Shown here piece by piece: positions 6,354-64,000 of a stretch of DNA of 64,000 nt (position 1 is its first letter; each line of letters starts with the position of its first letter). This stretch comes from Heterodontus francisci (lineage: Eukaryota): contig NC_090413.1 in the NCBI RefSeq assembly GCF_036365525.1, positions 22,875,869-22,939,868 on the forward strand, read 5' to 3'. The notes below the pieces were generated by a model, which had not been told where the DNA came from, ran no database searches, and worked only from the letters and a program-made list of their open reading frames with translations. The position numbers and the translations under genes are program-made.

Positions 6354-7134
6354 CTGCAGATTTTTTTTTAAAAGAAAAAGGTACATTCTTAACTCAGTCA
6401 CTGAGTTAATTAACAAATAGACATCCTGTTATAAAGTACAAAGAATACATCATTCCCCTATAACATAAAGTGAAATGAGATGGTGGGATGACTTCTGTGC
6501 TGTATTGACTCTATGTGTCCATGATGAGACGTGAATGAAAATTGGAGGAAAAATAAACAAAATGCAAATCCTAGTAAGAGATAAAACTCTCAGTCCCCAC
6601 TCTCAAACTCCATCTATCTGCATATATACAATACAAAGAAGACAGATTAGAGTGGGTTTCAAAGCAGTGACACATCAGAGGGTGAGAACACAGTGGGAAA
6701 CAGCACAAACTGCAAATGTTTACAGCAACATCTCAATTACTTTATGCGTTACAGATATTCAAACATCACCCAAACTAGAATACAAATGCAAACATCTTGT
6801 ATAGGGAGCCATTATGGGGTGAGGTGGGAAAATGATGATACATCTTTCATTGAGTGGTTCTGGGAATAACCGATGACTAGGAGGGTTGGGGGGTAACTAG
6901 CCAGGACACGAGCACAACCTCCCCTCCGTGGTCTCTTTATTGCCCAGATGAAGAAGTGGATGTCAACTCATTTTAAATAGCTCATATGAAAGGCAATGCC
7001 ACCATCCATGTAATGAATCCTTGAAAGTGGAAGATAATTGTGCAACAGCTCAACACCCCAGGAAATGTTGTAACCCATAAATCATCAGTACAGAAAAAGG
7101 GCTCCACTGCTAGAAACTCAAAAATATTGCACAC

Positions 7135-7293
7135 CTTTGTTACCATAACAACAACAAAATTCTTCTCATCGATCTTGTACTCCTTGAGCTGGACATCATT
7201 GTTTAGGATTTTTCCAGCATATATGAGTTTCTGACCAGCAACAGGGAAACCAGTACCCTTCTCTGCTTCAATACATTCTTTCAGTGCTTGCAC
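7135..7293 (-). CDS. RAD23A: RAD23A exon 2 (UBL domain)
   Basis: cag|[13 protein letters not shown]...[10 protein letters not shown]...[12 protein letters not shown]|gt; 159 nt, phase 0-0. Confidence 0.95.
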
Positions 7294-7312
7294 CTGTCAA
7301 ATAAAATTTTGT

Positions 7313-16269: not shown

Positions 16270-16464
16270 TTATAACTCATCCTTTGGAGCAGTATCTGTT
16301 CCATCGTCTTCCTCCTCCTCTTCCTCATCATCTTCTTTTTCTTCTTTCTCTTCATCCTCATCCTCTTCATCACCTTCAGCATCATCCTCTTTATCCTTTT
16401 CTTCCTCCTCTCGCTTCTTTCGCTCTTCTTCATCCTGTTGCTCCTTCATTTTCTTTTCTGGATC
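16270..16464 (-). CDS. CALR: Calreticulin exon 9 (acidic C domain, KDEL, stop)
   Basis: cag|DPEKKMKEQQDEEE...DTAPKDEL*; 195 nt; exon lengths sum to 1245 nt = 414 aa + stop. Confidence 0.97.
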   Translation of the reverse strand, partial: DPEKKMKEQQDEEERKKREEEEKDKEDDAEGDEEDEDEEKEEKEDDEEEEEEDDGTDTAPKDEL

Positions 16465-16756
16465 CTGAACAAAGACCATAAATCAACTTAGTCATTAGAG
16501 GTGGGGGTGACAAAAAAAAAAGGACTGCTCAAACACATTCAATAAATAGGCACTAGAATTGCAGAGAAGCATAAATAAATATCATTTGAAATGCTCCATG
16601 TGATGAAAAACACCAAGCATTCCAATTACAAATTTTGTCCCTAATAATGGAGTTTGTCTAGACCATTTTGATCGACATAATGGAGGGAGGGTGGGGGGGG
16701 GGGGGGGGGGGGGGCAATGGGAGAGAAGTACCAGTGATGGTGGCAGTGAAACTACA

Positions 16757-17250
16757 CACTAACTTCCAACGCCGAAGTCCTCAAAGCAGCCAGCATATAC
16801 ACCCTACTGAGCCAGCAGCACTCGAGATGGCTTCACCATGTGAGCCGCATGGAAGATGGCAGGATCCCCAAGGACGCATTGTACAGCGAGCTTGTCACTG
16901 CTATCAGACCCACCGGCCGTCCATGTCTCCGCTTTAAAGACATCTGCAAACGCGACATGAAGTCCTGTGACATTGATCACAAGTTGTGGGAGTCAGTTGC
17001 CAGAGCTGGTAGACAGCCATAAAGGCGGGGCTAAAGTGGCAAGTGGAAGAGACTTAGCAGTTGACAGGAAGAGAAGACAGAAGTGTAAGGAGAGAGCCAA
17101 CTCTAACAGCCCCGACAAACAATTTTATCTGCAGCGCCTGTGGAAGAGTCTGTCACTCTAGAATTAGACTTGAAAGTCACTCCAGGCGCTGCTCCACAAA
17201 CCACTGACCACCTCTAGGCACTTACCCATTGTCTCGAGACAAAGAAGAAA
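16757..17250 (+). mobile_element. RTE-clade LINE 3' fragment in CALR intron 8
   Basis: RWLHHVSRMEDGRIPKDALYSEL...RPTGRPCLRFKDICKRDMK, typical RTE/BovB-like C-terminus. Confidence 0.88.
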
Positions 17251-17828
17251 GTAGGATGGAATTACAAATGGCCAATTTTATTTCATTAAAAAGGGACATC
17301 AGCCCTACCTACAGTCATGACATTGCCAAATCTCACTAAGTTTTATGTGCAGAGGAATGTAAAGTCTTTCCAATTTGTTAGTTTAGAACATGTACACTAA
17401 AGTTTTGGTGATGTCCGCATAGGAAAAGCCAAGCTTTTCCCAAATCCCTAGCTTAATGCACAGAGTTATTCTTATGGGCTGTAAGACAAGACTGTCACTT
17501 CAGTGCACCTTTCACTGAATTTTTGGCAGTTGTGTCATGAACTGGCATTTACTAAGAGCCAGGTTGCAACAACCCTAAATTAACTCCATACAACCATTAC
17601 ACCCTCAGGATAGCATGGGTTTTCATTCTAGTCCCAGTCAGATTGGAACACAAGTCCCAGAAGGGAAAGGTCAACAGCATGTTAATGATTGCTCAAGGGC
17701 TGGAAAACAGGTTTCAAATTAGACTTCAAATTTTAATAATCCTGCTGCCATACTGCCTTCTGCAGCCAGCCTTTTTTTTTATAAAACAAATGATTCATCT
17801 TCCTGCGGAGGATGTGTTACACTCTTAC

Positions 17829-17921
17829 CTTAGTTGCTCCCCAGGTTTCCATTCCAACATTTTCAGCAAATTTTTCATCATCTGAGATCAGGAAGTTATC
17901 AAATATTGTCCCAGATTTAAC
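17829..17921 (-). CDS. CALR: Calreticulin exon 8
   Basis: cag|VKSGTIFDNFLISDDEKFAENVGMETWGATK|gtaaga; 93 nt. Confidence 0.97.
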
Positions 17922-18957
17922 CTGAAAAATTAAAGCAAACTACCACTCAAAAACTTGGTCACATCTGTACAAAAATATTCTAATGGAGGATACCTGCTCC
18001 ATAGAGATTACAAGCTTTGCAGGGGGAGGAAAAAGTAAAAAATTAAAAGGAAGGGCGTACTGCAAGATAGGTTAACTTACTCTCAGGTCTTTGGAGCAGG
18101 ATATAAAAATTCTATGTGCATCTAGCCCCTACAATGCTGGTTTCCAAAGGGAAGGAGAAGGAACTTACATGATGAGGGGGAAGATTACACAGTTGGCTCA
18201 CATTGGCTACAGTTGTTTCTCCTACTGCCAGTGAAAACAATGTACATAAAGAGAAACGATCAGAAATACTTAATGATCTCAGCACCTCTATTGTTTAGAC
18301 AGGATTTTTTGCTGCTTACATGGTTTAGCGCGTGAACGAACTATGGGAGAAATGGTTCAGACAAAATGTACAAGGCCATGCTAGACTTTTAAAAATAATC
18401 AATCAATCTCATTTGTGTTGAAATTTCCCCAATGATACTGCAGAGTATACAGGGATTAACACAAACTTATTTTTTTAAAAAAAACTATTAAAGCACGTGT
18501 GTGCAGAGTCAAATGGTTATTTCATCTGTGGCCTGACCAATAGTTCACTGCAGCCGAGGAGTGTCCAAACCTTGCCTTTATGGGTCACTTGGGTACTTAC
18601 TGTGAATCACTGCAGGTCAGAGATTAAAATTCACATTTCCATTAATTAGTATGTCTCGAGATGGATATATTTAAAAACTGTCGCCAATGAGGGAGAAGGA
18701 CCAATAATGGGAAGTTCCATGCCTCTAGGCTGCTGACTTCAAAACAAGATAAAATGGAACAATGGCAGAAATAAAAAAAAGATAGAAACCGCAGTTACAA
18801 GACTTTGCCAGCCATGAAGTGCATTGTAAGTAGTGATGCAGACAGACAGACACTCAGTTAGTGGTTTGAGAACCTAAAGAACAGAGGTTTTGAACAGGAA
18901 ATATTACCACAAAACCCCCCATTTAAGCTTTCTGCTAAAGTGAAAAGTTGTACTAAC

Positions 18958-19101
18958 CTGCCACAGATCTAGACCAATCACACCAATATCTTTGTAACTG
19001 TAAAGGCTGGAATCTGGTGTGTACTCAGGATTATCAATTTCAGGGTGAATCCATTTACCCTTGTAATCTGGATTATCAATTTGACGTGGTTTCCATTCAC
19101 C
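18958..19101 (-). CDS. CALR: Calreticulin exon 7
   Basis: tag|GEWKPRQIDNPDYKGKWIHPEIDNPEYTPDSSLYSYKDIGVIGLDLWQ|gttagt; 144 nt. Confidence 0.97.
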
Positions 19102-20260
19102 CTAGTGAAAAAAAATACATTAGATAGAATAATTATTAATTCTATGGTCTGACAATCTTGACAGGGATACTGACATTGTACCATCTTCCCTATTTTTGAG
19201 GTTCAGAAAAATATAATGAGTCTAAACAATACAAAATAAGAGACATAGAATGACAACTTTATTCAACATTTTCAATTGCCCTTAAGGGCAATTAGGGATG
19301 GGCAATAAATGCTGGCATAGCCAGCGATGCCCACATCCCATGAATGAATAAAAACAAGTACTAAGCCAGCTTTGATCTGCCACTGGGCCTGCAGAATTCA
19401 AATTGAGAAGGCCAATGACAAAATATCCATCACTGACTTTTGGTGATCCCCAGTCTTGTGCAGAGGAACATGGAGACTACCGTGGTATTTATACACAGCA
19501 GTACCAATTAAAAAACAGACAAAGGTGATCAAGCAAGTGCTGCTCAGTGAAGCCACAGTTACTTCATTTCAAAGTTGAGGTTATAAGGACCAAGGTCAAC
19601 CCAAAAAAAAAAAACTGGTAGAATGTACTTCAAATACAAGATAGCACAGCACCTCATGACTTCAGTGCCTTGAAGAATTTTGTGGCAAGCAGTTACTAAA
19701 GCAGATTTGATAAACAGGCAGTTGTCACACCAGTGTGAATATCAGAGCACTCGACACTACACATTAAGATTAGATTAAAGCAAGTAGTGTGAAAAATAGC
19801 CCCTTCAGAAGAGAAGCTCAGTGATCTTAAAAGCTATCAAAAATTGGGTATTAAAAGGATTGTCCAACAGGTACAGTCATTTACACTGTAAGCATGTTAA
19901 AAAAAATTGCATTTGTGGGTCATCCAATGTTAAAGGAAATATTGGCAGAGTGTACAACAGGCAGCTGATTTGCTTTTGCCCGTTTTCACCTGTGCTGCAA
20001 GTGAAACCAGCCTCAAAGTTTTTGGAAAACCCTCACCTACCCTGACAAAAAACAGATTTCAGCGCGTAATAGATTTCCACGTGTCCCTTATGAAAATGCA
20101 ATGCAGCAATGGATTACACTGCAACTCAGAACAATCGATACCAGAGTAGCACATCAGGTTCATTGAGGTTAACAGATATAATCTTGCTCTGGGTCAGGAA
20201 TTGTGACAATATCACTTAATATTTGTGCATAGATTATCTATAAAAAGACTCAACCATTAC

Positions 20261-20374
20261 TTTGTATTCACTATTCTGAATCATAGGTGGCTCCCATTCA
20301 CCATCCATCTCATCATCCCAGTCTTCGGGTTTCTTGGCGTCAGGGTCAGGGATGTGCTCAGGTTTCTCCCAGTC
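20261..20374 (-). CDS. CALR: Calreticulin exon 6 (P domain)
   Basis: cag|[38 protein letters not shown]|gtaatg; 114 nt. Confidence 0.97.
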
Positions 20375-20474
20375 CTGATGGGAAAGTAAATCAGATCTGC
20401 AGTTAAGCAAGCGAGACAGCATGGAAACTTTATCTAACTTTGCAGCATTTCCATTTCAGTAAAACTTCACTTAC

Positions 20475-20684
20475 GTCAGGTTTTTTATCCTCTGGATCAT
20501 CGATCTTTGCACGTTCATCCCAGTCTTCTGGTTTCTTAGCTTCTGGATCTTTGATTTTCTTTGGTGGAAGGAAGTCCCAGTCTTCTTCCAAACTTCCTGA
20601 TTCAACTTTTTGGTTGTCAATTTTCACCTCATAAGTGTTGTCTGGATGGACGATGAGGGTGTAGAGATGTGTAAATTCATCATC
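20475..20684 (-). CDS. CALR: Calreticulin exon 5
   Basis: cag|[12 protein letters not shown]...[36 protein letters not shown]|gtaagt; 210 nt. Confidence 0.97.
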
Positions 20685-21498
20685 CTGGTTTAAAAAAGAA
20701 AAAAATATGTTTAGAGCTGCTTCAACCAAGTTGGCCAAATGGTTGGCGCTGTTAGATTTCCAAAAGCCTTACTCTGCCTCAAGCATTTAGACTCCCTTCA
20801 TCCATTCTTCTGAAGACAAACCTCACCACCCAGATGTGATGAGAAAAGACAATGAAGCATTATTGACAGTGCCTTCGCAACAGAGACAAGCAGGTCAATG
20901 GTACTGGGTAGGTGTCACTGTTAATAGGGAAACGGAGTGCACAAAGATAAAATGTATACCATGATTAATCTTGATTCCATCACCAATGCCACTGCAACGT
21001 AGCCATTTACTATACAATTTACTTGCCCGTTCATTAAGCAAGTGTCCAAACCAATAGTTTTGGCCACAAGTGATCCCACAGGAGATCAATTAACGTACAC
21101 TATTCAAACAAAAAAAAAAATCAAATCAGAAATAGTCCCTGAACAAAAGGAGTTCACTCCATCTACTGACTCTTGAAAGCAGCTCCATAAGAGAAGCAAG
21201 AGTCATTGAAGTTGAAGCAGCATGGACTCAAGTGCAGGAATGGACTTACCAGACAGCATGTACAATATCTATACATTCATTACTGTATCTTAAATGTTAC
21301 TGCAACACAATGAATCCCAGCTTTAACTTTTCTCAATTCTGACGAGGGATCAACACCACAACATTAACCAAAGTTTCCCCCCACCCCCGCCAGATGCTAG
21401 CAGACTGCTCTGCATCTTTCAGCATCTGCTTTTAGGATATGGTTTAGTCAAAATGGCAGCTGTGGCTCCCAATACCAAAAGGCAAAGCAGTTACTCAC

Positions 21499-21593
21499 TT
21501 TGCAACGAATATCCTTGGAAATCAAGTGATTCTTCCCTTTGTAATTGAAAATGACATGGACTTTCTTGGTTCCTGGGCCACAAATGTCAGGAC
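21499..21593 (-). CDS. CALR: Calreticulin exon 4
   Basis: cag|(G)PDICGPGTKKVHVIFNYKGKNHLISKDIRCK|gtgagt; 95 nt. Confidence 0.97.
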
Positions 21594-21690
21594 CTGGAAT
21601 TATAAGAACAGCAAATAGAGTCATCCTCACTCACCACATCATTTCCCAATATCCTACAATGTTTGACAAAGCAGAGTTACATAATGGCTC

Positions 21691-23012
21691 AAAAACAAGA
21701 ATTGCTGGAGTCACTCAGCAGGTCTGGCAGCATCTGTGGAAAGAGAAGCAGAGTTAACGTTTCGGGTCAGTGACCCTTCTTCGGAACTGACAAATATTAG
21801 AAAAGTCACAGATTATAAGCAAGTGAGGTGGGGGTGGGGCAAGAGATAACAATGGAGAAGGTGCAGATTGGACCAGGCCACATAGCTGACCAAAAGGTCA
21901 TAGAGCAAAGGCAAACAATGTTAATGGTGTGTTGAAAGACAAAGCATTAGTACAGATTAGGTGTTAATACACTGAATATTGAACAGCAGCAAGTGCAAAC
22001 CTGAAAAAAAAACAGTGGGTAAGCAAATTGAACAAACTAAGATGAAATGAAATAAATGCAAAAAAAGATTGTAAAAAATGTAAAATAAGAATGTAAAAAA
22101 AAAAAGGGAAGAAAAAATAACTAAAAATGAAAGTAAAATGGGGGGCTGTCATGCTCTGAAATTATTGAACTCAATGTTCAGTCCGGCAGGCTGTAGTGTG
22201 CCTAATCGGTAGATGAGGTGCTGTTCCTCGAGCTTGCGTTGATGTTCACTGGAACACTGCAGCAATCCCAGGACAGAGATGTGAGCATGAGAGCAGGGGG
22301 GAGTGTTGAAATGGCAAGCAACCGGAAGCTCAGGGTGACCCTGAGCTTCCGGTTGCTTGCCATTTCAACACTCCCCCCTGCTCTCATCTCTGTCCTGGGA
22401 TTGCTGCAGTGTTCCAGTGAACATCAACGCAAGCTCGAGGAACAGCATCTCATCTACCGATTAGGCACACTACAGCCTGCCGGACTGAACATTGAGTTCA
22501 ATAATTTCAGAGCATGACAGCCCCCCATTTTACTTTCATTTTTAGTTATTTTTTTCTTCCCTTTTTTTTTTACATTCTTATTTTACATTTTTTACAATCT
22601 TTTTTTGCATTTATTTCATTTCATCTTAGTTTGTTCAATTTGCTTACCCACTGTTTTTTTCAGGTTTGCACTTGCTGCTGTTCAATATTCAGTGTATTAA
22701 CACCTAATCTGTACTAATGCTTTGTCTTTCAACACACCATTAACATATTGTTTGCCTTTGCTCCATGACCTTTTGGTCAGCTATGTGGCCTGGTCCAATC
22801 TGCACCTTCTCCTTTGTTATCTCTTGCCCCACCCCCACCTCACTTGTTTATAATCTGTGACTTTTCTAATATTTGTCAGTTCCGAAGAAGGGTCACTGAC
22901 CCGAAACATTAACTCTGCTTCTCTTTCCACAGATGCTGCCAGTCCTGCTGAGTGATTCCAGCAATTCTCGTTTTTGTTTCAGATTTCCAGCATCCACAGT
23001 ATTTTGTTTTTA
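21691..23012. mobile_element. Fold-back (palindromic) 5'-truncated Penelope-like retroelement in CALR intron 3
   Basis: Inverted arms 21691-22336 and 22338-22975 around a 1-nt centre; TSD TTACATAATGGCTC (21677-21690, 23013-23026); encodes GIY-YIG C-terminus SVLGLLQCSSEHQRKLEEQHLIYRLGTLQPAGLNIEF. Confidence 0.93.
21752..21788 (-). ncRNA. Minimal hammerhead motif variant (CCGAAGA core) on the CALR sense strand; mirror copy at 22878-22914 (+)
   Basis: AGUU CCGAAGA A GGGUC acu GACCC GAA ACGU U AACU. Confidence 0.6.
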
Positions 23013-23090
23013 TTACATAATGGCTCCCTCAGGCACTGGGAGTTGTTGCAGTGATTTTTATTTGGTTCCTTTTTGAAAAAAAAAAATTTT

Positions 23091-23129
23091 ATATATATAT
23101 ATATATACACACATACACACACACACACA
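23091..23129. repeat. (TA)n(CA)n microsatellite
   Basis: Direct reading. Confidence 0.95.
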
Positions 23130-23680
23130 GGTAGGTTATTTAAACAATTACTCAACTGCAGGACTGGGGTAAAATTGGAACTTTATTGATCTAGTACAAG
23201 TCCAGACAACCATGAAGGTTATAAGCATGAAGGTGTAACACCAACAACCATATCCTTTAGGAGCATACAATTAATTACACAAATTAACTCAAGGTACAAA
23301 CTATACATCCCACGGTTTACACAAATAGCAGACTGAGGCATGAAGTACACATATTTACGAAAGGACTGTGGTGGTTGGGTTCAATTCAATAATCACTCTC
23401 CCTCCATTAGGTTGGAAGTTCTTGGGCTCTATTCATACACAAAATGAGGAACAGATGCAATGGGGGGCGGGGGGGGGGGGGGGGGGGGGGGGGGGGAAGT
23501 GACACAGAACAATGACTGCACCATGGAACAATGGAAGATGGGTTAGCACCTTCAGCCTTTCATGTGCAGTGTTTCCAGTCTCATCCGAACTCCTGTGGGC
23601 AGAGGAGAGACCACGTGTTCCTAGGCTAGGGGAGGTGGAGGAAAATATAGGGTTCTATCTTTTTTTAAAAAAAAACTTAC

Positions 23681-23884
23681 CAAACATAATATTGTAGTTG
23701 GAGTCTCCGTGCATATCAGACTGATCAAGGGTCGATGGAAAGATCTTCACATATCCACCTCCGCAGTCGATGGTCTGCTCATGCTTGACTGTGAACTGGA
23801 CAACAAGGGTCTTTCCTTCATTGCTGAAGGATTCAAACTTTGCAGACATTGCATAGAATCTGGCATCCTCACTCGTCTGAAGTC
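23681..23884 (-). CDS. CALR: Calreticulin exon 3
   Basis: aag|(G)LQTSEDARFYA...KHEQTIDCGGGYVKIF...YNIMF-G|gtaag; 204 nt. Confidence 0.97.
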
Positions 23885-25426
23885 CTTGAATTGGGGAAAG
23901 AACGGAAGAAAAATCAGGTAGTTGGCACAATTGGTCTGTAAAACCTAAATTTTAAACCATCACAGTGACCAGCCAATAAATACCAATCACAGAGTTCCAA
24001 CACAGATGCAAGGTGCATTTATATTGCAGTACTGGTTTCAGGGAACCAGCTATACGAACCTCTCAACTTTTCTCTTCCAACATTCCTATTTCCACCCAAC
24101 AGTTAATCAGAAAGCAGGCAGTAGTGGAAGCAACAAGTCCAGCTATGACAAAGAGCCTGTGCTACTCTGAACAATAACAAGTTCGAGCAGATTTTATGGG
24201 ATTCCCAGAGAACCACATTTGCCATTATTAAGCATAAGCACTTAATGGCTTTCAGTCATCGATTATTATGTAATTACTATATGCATTTATTACAGGAGCA
24301 CAGCATCCACAATCCCAGAAGTATGTCAATTGTCCCAGTTCCAATGCATGAGAAAGGAAGATATTGGATTCTGATTAGACTGACTAACTTGAATTTCGCA
24401 CTGACGTTCAAGATTCCCCAAAGTGTACTACAGGTGGTCTGAATCAGCAACTGACTTTACAATGTGTTACAGTACTGCTGTCAGGAGCTCAAATCATGCG
24501 GAGGCTGTCCAGTATTCAGCTGACAGCAACTAATGATGAAGTATCATCAGTTCTGAGTCAGTGGGAAACCTCTTAGGAAGATGCATTCCTTCCGATGTAA
24601 ATAACCAAATCCCAAAAACAGACTACGTCACCCCACAGCAACTGTACTGCCTGCTCAGCTAGCCAGTGAGAAGCGGATAAGTGAAGACTTGGGCTCACAG
24701 TCTTTGAATGGAGAAAAGAAACTAAGGCAAGGCAGAAGTTCTACAGAAATTAGCAGCAAGAGCAACCATATCCAGATCTTACTGGCAGGCTAGTCACATG
24801 GCATTTAAAACCTTCAGGCTGGAGATACAGCTCAGGCAAATGCTTTTATGCACCAGTATACATATCAGAGTCACAAAATAGCCAAGGCACAATACTTCCA
24901 GACATTATGAACACCACACTAGAGCACATTGCAAGGCAATATCAAGGTTGATATGCCACAAGTCAGTCTTGTAGTGCAAGTCCATCTCAATCTTTTGATA
25001 CAATACTGTCTTGAAATGTATTCCAACCCTAACACTTAATGCAGAATTTTTCCATGGTCAGTTTTTCCCACAGCAACTGAACTATCCTTTCAGTCTTCTC
25101 TGCATGATCATGCAAGCTGTTAGTCCCAAACTATTATTAGAAGTCAGACCAATTAAACACAGGGAACAGTTGGATTTTTTTTTTGGATATTTCAATACTT
25201 TCCTCTTAAGAAATTAAAAGATCCAGAATGAGGAGGACCAATGGACATTTAGACAGTGGCAGAGGTCAACAGGCCAAAGTCATCCTACTTAGAGCTGAGA
25301 AAGAAAAGCTTGGCTGATGGAAGAGACAATATGGCTTCCTACAGAGAAAGACTAGATGGAAACATCCAGCAATACTTATGGCAGAAATGCAGTGATAATG
25401 TACGGAGCCCCCTTTTTACCACAACT

Positions 25427-25783
25427 GGCAGTGGCTCAGTGGTTAGCACTGCAGCCTCACAGCTCCAGCGACCTGGGTTCAATTCTGGGTACTGCCTGTG
25501 TGGAGTTTGCAAGTTCTCCCTCTGTCTGCGTGGGTTTCCTCCAGGTGCTCCGGTTTCCTCCCACATGCCAAAGACTTGCAGGTTGATGGGTTAATTGGCC
25601 ATTATAAATTGCCCCTAGTATAGGTAGGTGGTAGGGGAAATATAGGGACAGGTGGGAATGTGGTAGGAATATGGGATATATGGGATTAGTGTAGGATTAG
25701 TATAAATGGGTGGTTGATGGTCGGCACAGACTATGTGGGCCGAAGGGCCTGTTTCAGTGCTGTATCTCTAAACTAAACTAAAC
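25427..25783 (+). mobile_element. tRNA-derived V-SINE (HE1-like)
   Basis: A box TGGCTCAGTGG, B box GGTTCAATTC, V-domain TGTGTGGAGTTTGCAAGTTCTCCC, CR1-like tail, (TAAAC)n end. Confidence 0.9.
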
Positions 25784-25888
25784 AAGTCATGGCAAAGAGC
25801 ACAACATTCACCATTATTCAGAGTTTAAACCAAGGGGGGGGGGGGGGAAAAAAAAAAGAGGAAGGAAAGAGGGGAGAAATTTCCTTAC

Positions 25889-25990
25889 CTTTATCTTTTT
25901 CAGCATCACCGTAAAATTTGCCAGAGGTCAGCTTGAACTTTCCATAGTCGGATTTGTGCTTCGATTCAATCCATCGCTGTGTCCAGGCAT
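25889..25990 (-). CDS. CALR: Calreticulin exon 2
   Basis: cag|(D)AWTQRWIESKHKSDYGKFKLTSGKFYGDAEKDK-G|gtaag; 102 nt. Confidence 0.97.
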
Positions 25991-28078
25991 CTGTTGCACA
26001 ATAGAAAATATATCTACATTGTAAAATGTAAAAGAAAAGAGACCCTAAGCCAAAAGAAGATCCCTGCACAAGAATTTCTGATAGCTTCTCACTACAGTAA
26101 AATCAAGTAAAAGGGTTGTTATGCAGATTGAATCTATTGTCTGCCACCATTTTGTCAGGCCTCTAGGTGGCATCTCAATAGGACTTTTTTTTCCATTATA
26201 TAGCTAAACAGTTAAGTCAAGCCTACAACTGCACATTTATACTTAAAACAAAAAAGAGGGTAAATGGAATGAGACACTATATACCAACACCCAATGCACC
26301 AAGCTTTTATTTTACAGCAACTATTCCAAGTTAAATTTACTTTGTGCCATAATTTAAACAATTTGAGTGAACATTTAGACCAGATTAGAAACAAATAAAA
26401 AAAAGTACAGAATTGTGCAACTCGATTACAATAAAACAGTGTGAATTAACTATAAACTGTATAACCTCAATTAAGTGCAAAATTATCTGCTGATTGTGGG
26501 GATTCAAATAGCCAAGAGATTCCTCAATTACTAAAGTTCATCTAAATACTTGACCCATACAGACAAGGAAGATCCAATGCTTGCTGCTGACTCACAGCCT
26601 GGATACTGGTAGAGTTACAACAATGGCCCTCACGTCCCTGGGCTAGAGACATAAAAATCCACCTGAACTCCTGTTGCAATCATTACCCAGTGACTGCTAT
26701 TGAAGAGGCACAGGAGTGGATCTCACACCAGAACAGAAGCAGGCTCACCTGTGACACCTCATGTGACTAAAGAGTTTGCTGGGCCTCCCCGGTGAATAGT
26801 GGCTGCTTTGAGCAAGATTCCGACAAGGTGGCCAGCACCTGTGGAACAGTGCAACAAGGATTCAACAACCTCAAGAGCAGAGGCAGGGAAAGGCAACAGA
26901 GGCAAGGGGGAGCCACATCATTGCTTTTTTTTTTTCTGTACTGGAACAAAGGAAATGTGAACTTAAAAAAAAGCATACAGACAAGTGCTGAAAATGCACA
27001 GGACAGTTAGCGTCTGAGAGAGATTATAAAACAGAAAATTTTGCTTCTGTATAGAAAGATGAACACTCGAAAGGAGTTCTAGCAACCCAGTTAACAGGGT
27101 ATGAAGCCTAGGTGAATAATATTACCCCATTCATGTATATGGAAGTTAAAATAAAAAAGCAAATTCTGAAACTTAACAAAATGCTGGACATGCTCGGCAA
27201 GTCAAGTAGCATCGGTGGAGAGAAACAGTTAACATTTCAGCTCTGCCACCTTTCCTCAGAACCTGTTAAACATGGTTCCTGGTTCTCTATCTTAAAGCTT
27301 TGAATCCAAGCAGCAAGTTTCCAGTACTTGCTTAAAGCCACCTGCTGTCTTATGCAAGAAAGTCAGTTAGCAAGTGCAACCAAAAATTTAAAATAGGAGA
27401 AAATACATAATAGGATCATGTTTTGTTACATTGGTCCTATTTGTTGACTGAGAAATTAAAGCAGATGGAAGATCTTCAAAAGCTGGTATTCACCAGGACC
27501 AGCAAGCACACAGTAAGCGGCTACTTAAAATTGGCAACACTTCAAAGACCCAGGCAAGGCAGGGAGGTGGTGCTATATAAACTAAATCTGCTGTAAACCT
27601 GGCACATGCTTTAAGTGGAAGAGATTGTAATTTTGGCCTGATGTACAACAGAACACAATTGAGGGATTTCAGTCCTTTGAAAAGGCACTGCCTGTCTGCT
27701 GTGGCCATTAAGCAGCAAGTGATCTATGCACTTGATCGCTGATCTTTACTTCTGGATTATACTCCAGAGGTTAGCAAGAAGATTGATAACAGAACCAGAA
27801 CCCAAACTGTTGGAGCTAACATCTTCACAAACTGTAGCTTTTATTATTTTTTTTTTCTTAAACTGATTTTATACTGTTCTTTCAGATCAGATCCCAGGAC
27901 TCCAGTTTATCTGGTTAAAATGATGTTTGTAGTCTAATAGCCAACTCACAGATCCAGGTAAACTGGGTCTATAAGTCAGCTACCCACACAGGGAAAGCAA
28001 GAATCAGGAGCCGGCTTAAGACACTGGGCTGGCAGAATCAAAATTAGAAAAAAAAAAGTCCAACAGCAGCCATTTAAT

Positions 28079-28266
28079 AACAAAACCAGCAAATGCTGGA
28101 AACACTCAGGAGATCAGGCAGCTTCCCATCATCGGAACTGGAAGAAAGGTCATCAACCTGAAACATCAAATGTTTCTCTGTCCGCTGATGCTGTCTGACC
28201 TGCTGAGTATTTGAGCATTTTCTGCTCTTAATTTCAGATTTTCAACATCTGTAGTATTTCTTTTTA
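28079..28266. mobile_element. Degenerate mini fold-back Penelope terminal repeat
   Basis: AAATGCTGGAAACACTCAG..TCAGGCAGC arm and inverted GCTGTCTGACCTGCTGAGTATTTGAGCATTT arm, with hammerhead remnant GAAGAAAGGTCATCAACCTGAAAC. Confidence 0.7.
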
Positions 28267-41265: not shown

Positions 41266-41385
41266 AACCCTGTAAAACAATCTGTTAAATGTAAGCAAAA
41301 TGTTGCGATGCTAGAAATTTGAATAAAAGCGGTAAATGCTGGAAATACACAGCAGGTCAGGCAGCATCTGTGGAGAGAGGAACAG

Positions 41386-41422
41386 AGTTAACGTTTCAGG
41401 TTTGTGACCTTTCATCAGAACT
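41386..41422 (-). ncRNA. Minimal type I hammerhead ribozyme motif in a Penelope terminal repeat
   Basis: Minus strand AGUU CUGAUGA A AGGU cacaa ACCU GAA ACGU U AACU: intact core, stem I AGUU/AACU, stem II AGGU/ACCU, palindromic ACGU stem III. Confidence 0.72.
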
Positions 41423-42094
41423 GGCAAAGGTTAGAAATGCAATAGGCTTTGAGCAAGTGAAAGGGGAGGGGGGAAAAAGGAGGGAAGAACAACAAAGGGT
41501 GTGAAAGGGTGGAGGGCAGGGAGATTAAATGACAAAAGATTTCATAGTACAAAGCCAAAGGGAGTGGCAATGGCACCTTTCCATGCAAGCGCAGAAAATA
41601 CAGCAGCTGCCCTTTTACTTTCTCCCTTCTCACTATCCAGGGCCCCAAACACTCCTTCCGTGAAAAAGCAATCTACTTGTAGTTCTTTCAATTTAATATA
41701 CTGCATTCACTGCTCACAATGTGGTCTCCCATGCATTGGAGAGACTAAACATGGACTGGATGACCACTTTGCACAACACTTCCACTCAGTCTGCAAGCGC
41801 GACCCCGAGCTTCCCGTCACATGCCATTTCAATTCTCCACCTTGCTCCCACTCTGACCTCTCTGTCCTTGGCCTGCTACAGTGTTCCAATGAGGCTCAAC
41901 GCAAGCGTGAGAAACAGCATCTCACCTTTCGACTGGACACTTTACAGCCTTCAGGACTCAACATCGAGTTACAAAATTCTAGATTATAACTTATGCCCCC
42001 ATTTTTTTCTTTTCTCATGTTTTTATTTGCTGCTTTATTTCCCCCTCAATGGTTCTTAGTTACTTTGTATTTGCACCACATCCAGATACATCTT

Positions 42095-42422
42095 TTATTT
42101 ATTTAGAGATTTGGCACTGAAACAGGCCGTTAGGCCCACCGAGTCCGTGTCGACCATCAACCACCCATTTATACTAATTCTACATTAATCCCATATTCCT
42201 ACCACATCCCCTCAATTCCCCTACCACTTATCTACACGAGGGGCAATTTACAATGGCCAATTTACCTATCAACCTGCAAGTCTTTGGCTGTGGGAGGAAA
42301 CCAGAGCATGCGGCAGAAACCCACATGGTTACAGGCAGATATTGCAAACTCCACACAGGCAGTACCCAGAACTGAACCCGGGTCGCTGAAGCTATGAGGC
42401 TGCAGTGCTAACCACCACGCCA
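42095..42422 (-). mobile_element. tRNA-derived V-SINE (HE1-like) nested in the Penelope relic
   Basis: Reverse complement of the 30696 family. Confidence 0.9.
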
Positions 42423-42728
42423 TTTTCTTACTTGTCCTATTACCACTCCCTTTGGCTTTGTAACATGAAAACTTTTGCCATTTAATTTGTCCTCCCCTCC
42501 ACCATATCACAAACCTTCCCCTTTGTTCTTGCTCCCCTCCGTCCCCACTTGCTGAAAACCTATTACATTTCTAACTTTTAATAGTTCTGATCAAATATCA
42601 CGCAAATCTGAAATGTTAACTCTGTTCCTCTTACCTCCACATACTGCTGAGTGTTTCCAGCATTCTCTACTTTTATTTCAGATTTCCAGCAGCTGCAGCA
42701 TTTTGCCTTTGTGCAGGCGACCCTGTGA

Positions 42729-47233: not shown

Positions 47234-49312
47234 TAGAACATAGAACAGTACAGCGCAGTACAGGCCCTTCGGCCCACGATGTTGTGCCGAACCTTTAACC
47301 TACTCTAAGATCAAACTAACTACCTACCCTTCATTCTACTATCATCCATATACCTATCCAAGAGTCGCTTAAATGTCCCTAATGTATCTGCTTCTACTAC
47401 CACCGCTGGCACCGCATTCCACGCACCCACCACTCTCTGTGTAAAGAACCTACCTCTGACATCTCCCCGAAACCTTCCTCCAATCACCTTAAAATTATGC
47501 CCCCTGGTGATAGCCCTTTCCACCCTGGGAAAAAGTCTCTGGCTATCCACTCTATCTATGCCTCTCATCATCTTGTACCCTTCTATCAAGTCACCTCTCA
47601 TCCTTCTTCGCTCCAATGAGAAAAGCCCTAGCTCCCTCAATCTATCTTCGTAAGACATGCCCTCCAGTCCAGGCAGCATCCTGGTAAATCTCCTCTGCAC
47701 CCTCTCTCTAAAGCTTCCACATCCTTCCTATAATGAGGCAACCAGCACTGAACACAATATTCCAAGTGTGGTCGAACCAGGGCCTTATAGAGCTGCAGCA
47801 TAACCTCGCGGCTCTTAAACTCAATCCCCCTGTTAATGAAAGCCTTCTTAACAACCCTATCAACTTGGGTGGCAACTTTGAGTGATCTATGGACATGGAC
47901 CCCAAGATCCCTCTGTTCCTCCACACTACCAAGAATCCTGTCTTTAAGCCTGTATTCTGCATTCAAATTCGACCTTCCAAAATGAATCACTCCACACTTT
48001 TCCAGGTTGAACTCCATCTGCCACTTCTCAGCCCAGCTCTGCATCCTGTCAATGTCCCGTTGCAACCTACAACAGCCTTCCACACTATCCACAACTCCAG
48101 CAACCTTCGTGTCATCGGCAAACTTGCTAACCCAGCCTTCCACTTCCTCATCCAAGTCATTTGTAAAAATCACAAAGAGCAGAGGTCCCAGAACAGAACA
48201 CCACTGGTCACCGAGCTCCATGCTGAATACTTTCCATCTACTACCACCCTCTGTCTTCTATGGGCCAGCCAATTTTGTATCCAGACAGCCAACTTCCCCT
48301 GTATCCCATGCCTCCTCACTTTCTGAATGAGCCTACCATGGGGAACCTTATCAAACGCCTTGCTAAAATCCATATGCACCACATCCACTGCTCTTCCTTC
48401 ATCAATGTGTTTTGTCACATCTTCAAAGAATTCAATAAGGCTTGTGAGGCATGACCTGCCCCTCACAAAGCCATGCTGACTGTCTCTAATCAAACCATGC
48501 TTTTCCAAATAATCATAAATCCTGTCTCTCAGAATCCTCTCCAATAATTTGCCCACTACCGACATAAGACTGATTGGTCTATAATTCCCAGGGCTATCCC
48601 TATTCCCTTTCTTGAACAAGGGAACAACATTTGCCAACCTCCAATCATCCGGTACTACTCCACTGGACAGTGAGGACGCAAAGATCATCGCCAAAGGCGC
48701 AGCAATCTCTTCCCTCGCTTCCCGTAATATCCTTGGGTATATCCCGTCTGGCCCCGGGGACTTATCTGTCCTCACATCATTCAAAATTTCCAGCACATCC
48801 TCCCTCTTGACCTCAACCTGTTCGAGCATATCAGCCTGTTCCACGCTGTCCTCACAAACGACCAGGTCCCTCTCACTAGTGAATACTGAAGCAAAGTATT
48901 CATTTAGGACCTCCCCTACCTCCTCCGACTCCAGGCACAAGTTCCCTCCACTATCCCTGATCGGCCCTACCCTCACTCTGGCCATCTTCTTATTCCTCAC
49001 ATAAGTGTAGAACGCCTTGGGATTTTCCTTAATCCTACCCGCCAAGACTTTTTCATGTCCCCTTCTAGCTCTCCTAAGTCCATTCTTCAGTTCCTTCCTG
49101 GCTACCTTGTAACCCTCTAGAGCCCTGTCTGATCCTTGCTTCCTCAACCTTAAGTAAGCTTCCTTCTTCCCCTTGACTAGCTGTTCCACATCTCTTGTCA
49201 TCCAAGGTTCCTTCACCCTCCCATCCCTTCCTTGCCTCATCGGGACAAACCTATCCAGCAGTCGCAGCAAGTGCTCCCTAAACAACCTCCACATTTCTGT
49301 CGTGCATTTCCC
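47234..49312 (-). mobile_element. Relatively young 5'-truncated CR1-clade LINE (HER1-like) in FARSA intron 3
   Basis: 374-aa open frame with KSPGPDGI, NYRPISL, SQHGF, DFSKAFDKV; next frame FADDTK; (TGTTCTA)n 3' tail; a few small deletions break the frame. Confidence 0.95.
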
Positions 49313-50532
49313 TGTATGTGTAATTGTATTTATTATATTTCAAATGGAGAATTCCTGCATCTGGAAAGGTTAGTCTGGAATTGCAGTGTGCAAATAATAA
49401 AAGCATGAGCCTTTATGCAATTCCTTTGTCCAGTATTTTAATAGGTTAAAATAGGTTAATTCCTACATTAGAGGAATTGCACATGAATGTGTTAAGTGTT
49501 CGTATGCTAATATTCACCGTGTCATTTCAACACCTTTAATCCTCTAGACAGGATGAATGTAGAGAAATGCATTGGATGATTTCTTGCCTTCAGCACCTAG
49601 CTTGGTAAACTGTGCTTAAACCTGAAGCAAAGCTGATGAGATGTGAGATCTGCACTTTGGATTCCCAAGATGGTGAATTCCCCAACTTGCTCACTACCTG
49701 TGCCCTCTGGAGTGGAATTGAGTGGAGGGCAGACATTTTCTCCATCAGGTGGGGGGGGGGGAGGGTGCAGTCAGTGGCTGGCAATTCCTGGACCTCTGAG
49801 TCTTCTTAGCAAGTAGTTTAATCGTGAGCCTGGCAGCCAGTCATTTATTTACCATCTTGAGTAGGGCCAAGGAGTAACACACAAGTTCAAAAACAGATAG
49901 GTGAAGGGGCTTTTTAAAAATTCTTGCATGGGATGTGAGCATCGCTGGCAAGGCCAGCATTTGTTGCCCATCCATAATTGCCCTTGAGAAGGTGGTGTTG
50001 AGCTGCCTGCCCTTGAAGCACTGCAGTTCTTCTGATGTAGGTATGCCCACAGTGCTATTAGGAAGGGAGTTCCAGGTTTCTGACCCAGCGACAGTGAAGG
50101 AACAGCTTCAGTCCAGCAAAACCAGTTTTTCTGCATTGCAGCTTGGAATGAAAGAAAAAAGATTATTTAACTATCAAACGAACTCGTCCTGCAGTCTATA
50201 CACAATTACCTCAGTCAGGGCTTCTTTCCCCTTGCGCCCAACAGATCTGCATATTTACTTTTTAAGCCATATATGAATCTGTTCAATCTAGTAATGACTC
50301 CATTTCACATCTGCTGTTCATCCAGTTTCTTTTCAGAGATGTTAATTGACATGATGGTAACTTCGTTTTCTCTAATACCCTGTTCTAGTATTGAGTACCT
50401 CTGTGGTATGATTGCTTTGATCTTTTGAACTTTGTATTCTTATGAGATGAAACAAATTAAATGATTTGTTTTTTATTGTTGCCTGTTTTCCTAAGATCTA
50501 ACACTTGGGTATAATTTGTCGTCTTCTGATAG

Positions 50533-58908: not shown

Positions 58909-60065
58909 GTAAGTCTGCACTAATTACTTGTGTTAAGTTAAGAGTTGTATATTTTATTTGACTTTGTACAATATTGTGGAGCAACAATATGAAGAGCTTT
59001 TACATCTGGATTTGTATAATTGTCAACCAACACCACTGAAAACCAATTAGCTGGTCGTCATCACATTACTGTTTTGAGGGAGCTTGCTGTGTGCAAATTG
59101 CAATGGTGACTACACTTCAAAAGTGCTTTATTGTCAAATAAACACTTCTGAATGACCTGAGTCAGTCAGCGTCTGTGGAGAAGTGCATTTGCATTTCAGG
59201 AGCAGCCCTTTTACGGAACCGAATGTTGACTTGTTTGTTCTTTCCACAGATCAGACTGACCTGATGTGTGTGTTCAGCATGTTCTGTTTTAGCTTCGGAT
59301 TTCTGAAGTCTGCACTATTTTGCTTTAACTTCAAGGAATAGTGCAACTCATGCACCAGACTTAACAATTCCCTGGAGAGCGCACCAATTATAATGGTGTT
59401 GTAGCAAGTTAGACTTGGGGCACCGTTCTTCTGCTTCTACCATTTGCTGGCAAGTGCACCTTAAATCAGCCTCTCAGTTGGCTGATACTTGCGTTGCTTT
59501 TGTGGGGGCAGCGGGGATGGGAGGGAGAGGGAGAATTGGAAGGGAGGGAAGAATTTTTTTTAATGGGATGTGGGCATTGTGACAAGGCCAGCATTTATTG
59601 CCCATACCTAATCGACCATGAAAAGGTGGTGGTCAGCCGCCACCTTGAACTGCTGCAATCCATGTGGTGTAGGCACTATAACTGGAGGAAGTTCCAACAT
59701 TTTGACCCAGCGAGATTGAAGGAATAGCGATATACTTCCAAGTCAGGATGGTGTGTGACTTGAGGGGAATTTGCTGATGGTGGTGTTCCCATGCGTCTGC
59801 TGCCCTCGTTCTTCTAGGTGGTAGAGGTTGCGGGTTTGCAAGGTGCTGTCGAAGGAGCCTTGGCAAGTTGCTGGAGTGCATCTTGTAGATGGTACACACT
59901 GCAGCCACTGTGCACTGGTGGTGGAGGGACAGATAATGACTGGATCTTTTTAAAAGGGTTTCTTTTTCAAGTTGAAGAGGCGTGCCAAATATAAAGTTGT
60001 GCAAGAGTTGCACTCTTTTCAGTTCCTTGTGGCATCAGTAACTGTATGTGTGTATATGTATTCAG

Positions 60066-60165: not shown

Positions 60166-61587
60166 GTGAGTTGATTTCCTCCCCCCCTCCCCCTGTTCGG
60201 GAATAATTTCACAGGTGGTAACAGTATCTAGTGCTTCATCCAAGTGGCTACTCTTCACGTGTAAGTCCTCCACCCATCCCTCTGTGCATGCAATTGATGG
60301 TCGTAATCAGGATGGAGAATCCTAGACCCACTTGATTTTCCCTCCCAGTCCCCAGAGTGCTAAACTGAATATTCCTCATGGCAAATGCAGCACAGGTCGA
60401 GTTCAAACCCATGGTATGTGCAGTTCAGCTACTCCGTACTTTATCCAGCTAAATTATCAGGACGACATCTGCACAAGCCTTTAATATGTTGGTATGTTTG
60501 TTGCAGCAGTCAAAGAACACACAGTATCCCTTAATCTTGGTAGTGTTCATAACGAAAGTATTAATGTTTCTACCACATGTTAAATGGATTTTTTAAAAGT
60601 TCTAATTGAGGATGGAAAGGGGGCAGCTCATATTAAGGGATATTTATGGTTGAGTGATCATTTAGGAATCATTTGTGGTGTAAGTGTGCAATATCTTAAA
60701 ATGGAGCACATTTTCTAAACTAAAATGGCTGAATGTTGTCTCCATAAAATGATGTGAAGTCTGTTGTCTCTTGCCTTTTGCTTTTTCCTCCCCAGTGCAA
60801 TATACAATACAAAATTGTGAGTATTGGAAGCTCTAAGTGTTGACTGACCTTTTAGGTTATTGCCCTGTAGCTAAGTAAGAGATAATCCTTCCACCAGTAA
60901 AGTGGGCAATTAGAAGCAGCTGCATAATCTCCCGCATGTGTTTAATGAAGAAAATATGAGGGCAGTTGGACTATAGGTGCTGTCGTGGTGTAACCTCAAG
61001 TCTTTGTTCACATACTGGGCTGTAAAATCTGGTGTGAAGATGCCAGCTATGCATCTGCAGCGCTCCCTGCCCGAGTAAGATTGTGACCAATACATTGGTC
61101 AGTCTGTATATAACAGAGCTCTGTTCACTACCTTCCAAATGCCTGTTAGATTTGTGTTGAGAGATTTGATAAGGTGAGGGCACTCAACAAACAGTAAAAG
61201 TGGAGATATAAGGATTCTTTCATATGGAGTGTAGTGGGGCATGGGTGTCACTGGCCTCTGACCTGGGGGTCTCATGGCTGCTGATTTTTGTGGGGAACTG
61301 GATTCTTGGACATGTGGATCTCCCTCTTAGCTACTGAGGTAGTGGAGTGTTGTGGCCTCCACTCAACTGCTGATAACCCTAACGTTAACTTGCTATGTGC
61401 ACTTGGGTAGGCCCTGAGAGAGGACCAGGTTAAATGGGTCTTTCTGGAGGTCAGCCATGGTTTTAAGGTGGGGGACGAGAAAGATGAAGCACAAAAAAAA
61501 AGTTACGAGGTACAACTTTATGCTTTGCTTGACACTCTCTTTCCTTTCCTGGCCAAACTACTCAGTACAATAACATTTTCTGTACAG

Positions 61588-61756
61588 GAAGTCTTCACAC
61601 CTGTGAAATATTTCTCCATTGACCGAGTCTTCCGTAATGAAACACTGGACGCCACTCACTTGGCAGAATTTCACCAGATTGAAGGGGTGGTAGCAGATTA
61701 CGATCTGACCCTGGGCGACTTGATGGGTGTTCTCCAGCAGTTCTTTAATAAGCTAG
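61588..61756 (+). CDS. FARSA: FARSA exon 10 (class II motif 2)
   Basis: cag|[38 protein letters not shown]...FFNKL-G|gtgaga; 169 nt. Confidence 0.97.
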
Positions 61757-62654
61757 GTGAGACCTTATCCATGAGCGGTTCTTCTCTCTTCCCTCCTGTG
61801 CTGACTTCAGTTAGGAAAATAATTGCTCCTGCCCAAGGTAATGAATTTTTTTTTTTTACTTATCTGTTTTTGTCTTCACTGCTGTTCCAGTGCTTAAAAT
61901 CCTTTTTGGAAGGAAGCTTGGGTGGATAACTATACAGACTGAAGTGAAGAAGTTAAATTTTAGCATCAGTAGAAATACATTGTTGTTGGATGCTTCAACT
62001 GGCCATGTTAATTCAACTCTCATGCCATTCAACTCAATAATGCCAATATTGTGTAACTCATCTCCCTCACTTCTATAATCCAATCCAAGTGTTGTGTCTC
62101 TGCTGATTCTTTTCATTATTTTAAAAAAGGTATTCATTCTCTGGATGTGCTGGTAAGGTTGGAATATATTGCACAATTCCCTAGTTGGAAGGTGGTCACG
62201 GGCTGCCTCCTTAAACCGCTGATAACAGTTTGATGCAACTGTGAATGGCTTGCTGGACCACTTCAGCAGGTAGTTGAGTTGACTACATTGGTGTGGGACT
62301 GAAGTCATATATACTGACTAAGGACAGCGAAGTTTCTTTCTCTAAAGAACATTGATGACCCAGCGTGTCACATGATCCCCCCCCCCCCCCACCCCTTACA
62401 GATTTTTTTTTAAAAGCTGAATTTAAATTTTCAAAATGCAAAGGTGGGATTTGAACTCACGTTCTCTGGATTAGTGGTCCAGGCCTCTGGATTGCTAGGT
62501 CCAGTAACATAACCACGATACTATATCTTGTCTTCTGTCCTACTTTTTCTAGGCCTCCTGTCAAAACTTCAGGTTTATTGATTAAAAAGTGTGCATTAGG
62601 TTTTTAATTTTTTTTAAAATGTGAAGTATTTCAGAGTCTTTCTCCTGTTGATAG

Positions 62655-62732: not shown

Positions 62733-63448
62733 GTATGATTGAAATGAGGAATAGTTGTTAAGGCCTGATGTACATTGCGAGTGGTTCAAGGTTCATGCGG
62801 TGGTAATGCCTCGTCTAACCTGGGTGTACTCATTTTCTTTGATAACCCTTTTATGTGTCAAACAAGAGCCCCTGCTTTAGTGTAAATTTATTATAGTCTA
62901 TATGAAGCTTGCCCAGCTTGAATTAACATTTTTTTTTTGGTCTCCCTTCTTAAGGCAGTCACTTTTGCTGAGGTCAGGTTTCACGAGTGGCAGTCCCCCG
63001 TCAGCACCGAACTCCGATTCCTCATGTGGGATCCATGTGTAGGCAGGTTGTATGCCATGGGGGCGTCACCACTAAGGCTGACTTCCCTCATGCTCTCCCT
63101 CTCGCATTTCGCTGTCTTGCAGGAGTAGTCACTGAACAATAAGAAGCATACCCCTATCTCAGGAACACAGAACCCAATGTAGCACCCCTAGTGCTGCTTC
63201 AACTGAGATCCTTGGGGGAGAAGACAGTGGAATGAATGCTTTATGTTTCATGCAGTAACATCCCTCAGCATAAGCACAAAATTTACATGATCGATTGAAA
63301 GGAAAAAAGAATTTGCATTTATGTAGTGACTTAATAGGGCATTTCAAAACACTTCACAACCGATCAAATATTTTTGGTGTGCTGCCACTGTTGCTTGGCA
63401 ACCATTTTGCGCACAGCAAGAACCCATAAATAGAAAATGAATGAACAA

Positions 63449-63600
63449 AAACAGAAAATGCTGGAAATACTCAGCAGGTCAGGCGGCAAAAATTAACTCT
63501 CTTTCTCTCTCTCCACAGATGCTGCCTGACCTGCCGAGTATTTCCAGCACTTTGTTTTTGTTTCAGATTTCCAGCATCTGCAGTATTTTGCTTTTGTATT
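63449..63600. mobile_element. Mini fold-back Penelope terminal-repeat insertion inside a Deu-type SINE
   Basis: ~40-nt inverted arms; TSD AATGAATGAACAA at 63436-63448 and 63601-63613. Confidence 0.82.
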
Positions 63601-64000
63601 AATGAATGAACAACCCTTAATCTGTTTTTGATGGTTGAGGGAAGAATAGTGGCCAGACCACTGGGAGAGCTCCCCACTCTTCAAAAGATCCCATGGCACT
63701 TCTTGCATTCGCCTCAGCAGGCAGAAGAGGCCTTGGTGTCAGCCTAGATTACTTGCTCAAGTCTATAATGGGGCTTGAATGTACAGTCTTCTGACTCAGG
63801 AGGTGAGCGTGTTGTCGACAGGAAGATGATGCTTAGAAATGCTGCTGCACTCAAAAGATCAATGATTTTAATGTTATTTAACTTATTCAGTAACTTTTTA
63901 TTTTAATCCAAACTTGCATGACCTATTCAATGGCCATGTATGGTCCATGTACATGAGCTCCATATCATCTTAGTTGGTCACAAAACCCAAGCTGAAAGCA

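Follow-up and report, generated by a model that had tools for sequence, protein, structure and literature searches.

Typical insertions of Penelope-like elements (PLEs) carry an adjacent, inverted, 5'-truncated copy along with a 30-40-bp tail that often is present at one end only (Craig et al. 2021, PMC8557442). Rotifer Pen2a_Av, for example, displays an inverted pLTR, a 31-bp tail and a 9-bp TSD, and the ORF of rotifer PLEs starts within the pLTR plus tail (Arkhipova et al. 2013, PMC3846280). Tandem pLTRs are frequent among PLEs but not obligatory (PMC8557442, PMC3846280). A CCHH motif marks the endonucleases of canonical PLEs, with a CX2-5CxxC linker found in Neptune and Nematis and absent from Penelope and Poseidon (PMC8557442). 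Mechanistically, a purified PLE protein from the green anole cleaves both strands of its target, extends each of them, and initiates reverse transcription at two positions which bound the tail (Frangieh et al. 2024, PMC11167929). Metazoan PLEs also contain minimal hammerheads, including as opposite-strand pairs 100-700 bp apart, with hammerhead monomers being inactive (Cervera and de la Pena 2014, PMC4209133). As transcripts, lastly, such repeats can serve as ADAR substrates: lizard Penelope accounts for more than 40,000 edited sites, palindromic repeats need no partner to be edited, and editing is extensive in the elephant shark, with 200,171 sites in brain (Porath et al. 2017, PMC5625713).

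The insertion described here forms a palindrome of 1.3 kb in an intron of the calreticulin (CALR) gene of Heterodontus francisci, within the ‘window’, i.e., the whole 64,000-nt stretch of DNA that was analysed. It resembles canonical EN+ PLEs in its inverted, 5'-truncated copy, its one-sided tail, its TSD, and a putative ORF start that overlaps the 3' terminal repeat (PMC8557442, PMC3846280). It differs in holding neither a full-length copy nor a tandem pLTR, in having arms of about 640 bp around a 1-nt centre versus the 18-38-bp junction palindromes of those same sources, and in placing its axis within endonuclease-coding sequence versus the built-in pLTR palindrome of the canonical elements. 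Published PLE insertions normally combine an inverted copy with a one-sided tail and a TSD, and it is the missing spacer alone that is unusual. With respect to the origin of the inverted copies, the locus is a clean specimen: its spacer-less centre, one-sided tail, intact TSD and rare shared letter together narrow how such a copy could arise. No literature on the CALR locus or on shark PLE palindromes was found by a search which had most subscription journals outside of its scope.

The CALR-intron unit almost certainly belongs to a high-copy PLE family, of which it is a dead, head-to-head, 5'-truncated insertion. The fuller account, which is very probable, is that of a non-coding head-to-head PLE pair for which a single template and a single integration event are likely, and that now likely is a tolerated passenger.

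Anatomy and identity of the insertion

The host gene, on the minus strand, encodes calreticulin (Pfam PF00262, E 1.4e-22), and its exons are numbered here as in vertebrate CALR structure. Feature coordinates are collected in Table 1.

Table 1. Features of the CALR-intron insertion and its surroundings, in window positions
Feature	Position	Strand	Basis
CALR exon 4 (numbered as in vertebrate CALR), 95 nt	21499..21593	-	spliced to both neighbours in X5, X6
Host intron, 2087 nt with insertion, 751 nt without	21594..23680	-	splice sites
TSD, left copy, 14 bp	21677..21690		exact direct repeat; bridged by X2 contig 9 (20400-21732)
Left arm, 5'-truncated PLE copy without tail	21691..22336	-	global alignment; in CALR transcript sense
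Minimal type-I hammerhead, core CCGAAGA (U4-to-C), palindromic AACGTT for helix III	21752..21788	-	motif scan
C-terminal 61 aa of endonuclease domain, then stop (last His of CCHH, conserved E, N)	22152..22334	-	in frame
Symmetry axis, single G, native to sense (plus-strand) arm	22337..22337	+	family contigs beyond 22336
Right arm, 5'-truncated PLE copy, 8-nt frameshifting deletion near centre	22338..22975	+	global alignment
Right-arm minimal hammerhead, CpG-type change breaks AACGTT palindrome	22878..22914	+	motif scan and alignment
Possible element ORF start, ATG 22933, open to tail end	22933..23012	+	inferred
One-sided 37-nt tail, right arm end	22976..23012	+	global alignment
TSD, right copy, 14 bp	23013..23026		exact direct repeat

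Self-BLAST of the window returns a single long inverted match, 21690-22976, at 96.5% over 1301 columns. When 21691-22336 is aligned globally with the reverse-complemented 22338-23012, there are 8 substitutions in about 635 aligned positions, i.e., 1.3% (at 21697, 21710, 21723, 21758, 21819, 21853, 21902 and 22218), plus an 8-nt indel at approximately 22279-22286 and four short internal indels of 1-2 nt each, two of them in A-runs, one at the edge of an A-run, and one consisting of AT. Around the single G at 22337, pairing is perfect over the innermost 50 bp. The initial annotation had described just such arms, reverse-complementary around a single G with few substitutions and short indels, as well as a 37-nt tail on the right arm and a flanking 14-bp TSD, and had proposed a self-comparison as a check. 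That comparison agrees with the alignment, tail and TSD are found where they had been placed, and the identity of the whole as an inverted, 5'-truncated Penelope-like insertion is supported. There is no direct tandem (pseudo-LTR) in the unit, whose copy is truncated too far to show one.

Polarised against the family, the substitutions fall on both arms: about four on the left (21710, 21853, 21902 and 22218) and three or four on the right (21697, 21723, 21758 and probably 21819).

It had also been claimed that the centre encodes the C-terminus of a GIY-YIG endonuclease, which stands for the left arm, where the frame on the minus strand is intact, but does not for the right arm, which has lost 8 nt. 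The resulting 61-aa peptide matches seven proteins, of which the three that are named belong to rays and a shark. Its identity to the C-terminal end of whale-shark protein P0011 is 57% (E 2e-22), and P0011 itself displays RT-like motifs together with a GIY-YIG/CCHH domain preceded by a CX4CxxC linker. Pfam gives no match to the 61-aa peptide nor to the ORF at 41453. Among homologues it finds GIY-YIG on P0002 (E 0.008, below the gathering score) and PF00078 on P0015, with the RT itself lying outside of the truncated CALR-intron insertion. A CX4CxxC linker precedes GIY-YIG/CCHH in three of six newly fetched homologues (P0010-P0012), and a decayed version is present in the window copy at 41569. 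Because these homologues carry a linker that Penelope and Poseidon lack, the family probably is of the Neptune/Nematis type, a clade assignment made from relatives at about 57-72% identity. The insertion itself differs from those clades in that it is truncated downstream of the linker.

Four of 24 candidate sequencing runs were compared (X2, X5, X6 and X16), using the left flank plus left arm as the queried stretch and a likeness cut of 88%; the RNA status of X5 and X6 is a software-assigned guess. Of the DNA run X2, 56,993 contigs align to this stretch; depth reaches the millions across the arm versus 6.56 on the flank, figures which are not copy number. The family is abundant in RNA as well, with 4409 aligning contigs from X5. 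A 27-nt family motif had no matches in metagenome contigs and none in viral contigs.

Two other identities were considered and rejected. A MITE or foldback DNA transposon does not fit a 37-nt tail at one end only nor arms that hold both the end of an endonuclease ORF and a hammerhead. A microRNA precursor likewise does not fit: of 27 Rfam matches none reaches its gathering score, the best scoring 65 versus 67 bits, from pairing alone.

Recurrent internal deletions are seen across the family in DNA and RNA runs, with joints at 21956-22144/22148 and at 21786/21787-21918/22206, possibly indicating non-autonomous derivatives. A joint between opposite strands (21919/21967), seen in RNA run X5, suggests that a further inverted copy is transcribed. 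Separately, a predicted HHAT isoform of H. francisci (P0004) starts with about 57 residues of the endonuclease end of this element, which may be an exonised copy or an annotation artefact.

Formation of the head-to-head arms

A shuffle control upholds three further head-to-head copies in the window: 28082-28266 (spacer 61 nt), 41293-42706 (857 nt) and 63447-63597 (33 nt). Equal truncation of the two arms is not, that is, a rule of the family. A fourth candidate, 59136-59326, is not counted, having failed that control (26 versus a maximum of 34). The copy at 63436-63613 has the same construction as the CALR-intron unit in having a tail-less left arm, a tailed right arm (across its 33-nt spacer) and a TSD, here of 13 bp. 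No TSD was found at the 28k and 41k copies. The tail-less boundary is common to window copies at 3442, 28082, 34412 and 63447, and the same 37-nt tail is found on those at 28266, 41293, 42706, 45896, 59326 and 63597. Those at 3442 and 34412 are solo copies, whose ending at the tail-less boundary is what a true start site would predict.

More broadly, 3'-end fragments of the family include solo ends at 3442, 27162, 34412, 45434, 45896 and 59239. Where these can be aligned, they end at one boundary or the other, tail-less or tailed. The 41293-42706 copy is older, with arms 85% alike, tails at both ends and a decayed GIY-YIG/CCHH endonuclease, and has had a 340-bp repeat inserted later, at about 42091-42436. 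That repeat, which presumably is SINE-like, occurs five times (25429, 30702, 33390, 39654 and 42094) at 82-87% identity and in both orientations, making it another source of inverted pairs. Frameshifted LINE-like reverse-transcriptase ORFs lie at 47320-49339 on the minus strand.

In the CALR intron both arms are truncated within 1-2 nt of each other, with a 1-nt overlap at the centre. Native sequence beyond 22336 is present in family contigs (148 in X2 and 7 in X16). Both arms have T at 22028, where C makes up 99.5% of X2 family depth, and both have G at 22106, where the family is 93% A, though this second position borders an A-run and is less reliable. Given these nearly coincident end points and the rare letter common to both at 22028, a single template is the likely source of the two arms, as judged from their sequences. 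The shared letter could instead stem from arm-to-arm conversion following insertion. Position 21819 speaks against one template: there the left arm has G and the right arm an A, a letter seen at 35% of family depth in organism A and absent from the listings for B and C. The difference could reflect two templates or later conversion, with coincidence put, as a rough estimate, at about 5%.

The route that is favoured, at about even confidence, is one of dual priming, with both nicks being used on a single 5'-broken RNA. The element's endonuclease would nick the two target strands 14 nt apart, giving rise to the TSD, and each resulting 3' end would then prime reverse transcription at one or the other of two element start sites, 37 nt apart, with that choice leaving one arm tailed and the other tail-less. 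Both cDNA copies would run to the same broken 5' end of the one RNA, be joined there with an overlap of at most 1-2 nt, and subsequently diverge as ordinary DNA. Each arm is in fact antisense on the strand that is continuous with the 3' end of its flank.

This model is extrapolated from a Poseidon-clade enzyme, that of green anole PAc (PMC11167929). PAc is similar in having two ends separated by the tail and a hammerhead upstream, and its priming on both strands would fit the geometry seen here. It is different in belonging to another clade, the target here is not especially AT-rich at one of the nicks, and the putative starts here are U-rich tracts about 43 and 80 nt past the candidate ATG versus the AC-rich stem-loop, at approximately +111-118, of PAc.

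Rather unlikely, though the strongest contender, is a fold-back of cDNA, in which a tailed first cDNA self-primes at its 3' end, is copied back upon itself, and then is cut at the tail boundary and joined there. The inverted-junction palindromes of PLEs have been interpreted in print as products of self-priming (PMC3846280), which accounts at once for the zero spacer and for the shared private letters; the tailed arm, too, is the longer one here (by 1 nt) as well as at the 28k and 63k copies. The native axis sequence, however, gives only a 1-nt overlap (2 nt if the source was a variant) with a loop of 1-3 nt, and termination of the second arm would need to coincide exactly with an end which is also used by solo copies. 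Improbable by comparison with either dual priming or fold-back is a head-to-head meeting of two independent insertions, or of two RNAs, for which 21819 speaks as a family polymorphism but against which stand the single TSD around the pair, the ending of the arms within 1-2 nt of each other, and the presence of the rare 22028 letter in both.

That the palindrome is instead a fold-back chimera or assembly artefact is extremely improbable. The initial annotation had already held the TSD and the arm mismatches against it, and in addition the flanks are unique and collinear where a chimera would mirror them, exon order is kept, arm-specific changes fall on both sides, and other family copies have the same anatomy. 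A 2404-nt X2 DNA contig, furthermore, spans 20400-21732 and reaches 42 nt past the left junction, with a single difference elsewhere, even though this is the only junction bridged among the X2 contigs listed, which contain neither the centre nor the right junction, and X2 may be the assembly's own sample. At 21230 the X2 contig has G versus A in the window, an allele or an error.

Age and persistence

Subfamily letters carried by both arms, at 21812, 21864 and 21874, are common in organism A and less so in B and C. The alternative to the letter of the arms accounts, at 21812, for 48% in A versus more than 99% in B and C and, at 21864, for 23% in A versus 92% and 97% in B and C. Because the arms carry these A-frequent letters, the insertion probably postdates the splits of A from B and C, so far as family sequence can indicate. 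Coverage of X6 extends only to 21498, in the neighbouring intron, and X16 lacks flank coverage at the 88% cut, making both uninformative on an empty site.

If the rate of the epaulette shark is applied (7e-10 per site per generation, with an interval of 1.4-14.1e-10; PMC10587355), the 0.63% per arm would correspond to roughly 9 million generations (4-45 million), a crude value that uses another species' rate and ignores conversion. Relative dating by the divergence of the intron from organism B (6/199 versus 8/640, p 0.11) is not significant. Persistence of the palindrome is the one, mildly surprising point, because long, spacer-less palindromes with similar arms are the most recombinogenic (PMC7999016).

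Hairpin, hammerheads and the host transcript

Arm sequence begins 97 nt from the acceptor of exon 4, whose AG is at 21595-21594 and whose polypyrimidine tract lies outside of the hairpin arms; the exon upstream of the host intron ends at 23681. Folding of 21480-23120 (minus strand) predicts 630 arm-to-arm pairs, with uninterrupted runs of up to 100 bp. With these 630 predicted pairs, the hairpin in CALR pre-mRNA that the initial annotation had posited is physically plausible. The further suggestion there that CALR thereby becomes a noteworthy source of edited RNA or of siRNA is not supported, the layout being routine (three more in 64 kb) and the family already abundant in RNA.

What exists here is similar to published ADAR-substrate repeats, i.e., Harbinger in Xenopus and Penelope in lizard (Porath et al. 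2017, PMC5625713), in being a self-contained, near-perfect, transcribed duplex. By this analogy ADAR editing of the hairpin is likely, would be ordinary, and would come without an evolved function. On the plus strand, editing of this minus-strand transcript would show up as T>C. Such places number 3 in X5, 2 in X6 and 2 in the DNA run X2, a weak comparison given that contigs drop rare variants and the family swamps the locus; heavily edited reads, in addition, fall under the 88% cut and so are lost from the contig comparison. For siRNA production from a PLE hairpin no support was found in those parts of the literature that were covered, and such production from this hairpin is unsupported.

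A function for the hairpin, whether as a source of hyper-edited RNA or of anti-PLE siRNA or instead as a shield for exon 4, is quite doubtful. In its favour can be cited the predicted pairing and long runs, the editing of lizard Penelope, of partnerless palindromes and of elephant shark brain transcripts at 200,171 sites (all from PMC5625713), splice-like sites within the arms, and a palindrome which has lasted long enough for 8 substitutions. Standing against these are an absence of T>C excess in RNA contigs (3 versus 2 DNA places, a weak test), the routine making of such hairpins by the PLE family, a seemingly lineage-specific insertion from which conservation can offer no argument, and the consideration that editing alone is not a function.

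The preferred reading of the insertion is as what is likely a tolerated passenger in the CALR intron. Joins of exon 3 to 4 and of 4 to 5 are normal in RNA contigs of carrier sample X5 and of organism B (X6), and neither skipping of exon 4 nor use of splice-like sites within the arms is found among the RNA contig rows listed. A near-perfect palindrome of 640 bp can evidently persist in an abundant transcript, 97 nt from a splice acceptor, and leave splicing visibly undamaged. On the minus strand, splice-like sites consist of a donor-like site at 22647, in the first-transcribed arm, and of two acceptor-like sites in the second arm, at 22001 and 21734; the host sequence also has a donor-like site at 21634 (minus), only 41 nt from the true acceptor.

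As a single locus this matters little, being a standard by-product of Penelope-like transposition. A broader notion, itself unlikely, is that insertion head to head by default gives rise to many intronic hairpins which are a main ADAR substrate in cartilaginous fish and which mask their own splice signals. If so, then the first-transcribed, antisense arm would bury the acceptor-like sites of the sense arm as well as the hammerhead, such masking would let insertions persist near the exons of housekeeping genes, and spacer-less copies would be the footprints of one RNA that was reverse-transcribed twice, from two nicks.

A hammerhead motif in each arm is an addition to what had been annotated. 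The scan gives three matches in the window, all within the PLE family (the third, at 41422 on the minus strand, is in the older copy and has a canonical core), versus none in 10 Markov controls; Rfam hammerhead models give no match up to E 5. These motifs resemble the minimal hammerheads of PMC4209133 in their type-I core, palindromic and near-absent helix III, and occurrence as opposite-strand pairs. They differ from the examples there in having a CCGAAGA core in both arms and in lying about 1.1 kb apart. The U4-to-C change is at 21783 and 22883, with no common alternative letter among the rows listed, and may be a family trait. Each strand here holds one motif plus its complement, so a dimer cannot form in cis. 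Self-cleavage of CALR pre-mRNA was considered and is unlikely, there being a single motif, with a variant U4, whose complement is transcribed first, and with monomers described as inactive (PMC4209133). An 11-nt match of the left flank, at 21669, to the hammerhead region is a probable chance resemblance, equalled in 44 of 795 control windows (21 once low-complexity ones are removed).

Beyond the intron, the same window contains a ubiquitin-domain gene (6982-7296), calreticulin (16273-26102) and a phenylalanyl-tRNA-synthetase-domain gene (61411-61929), an order that would match RAD23A-CALR-FARSA of other vertebrates.
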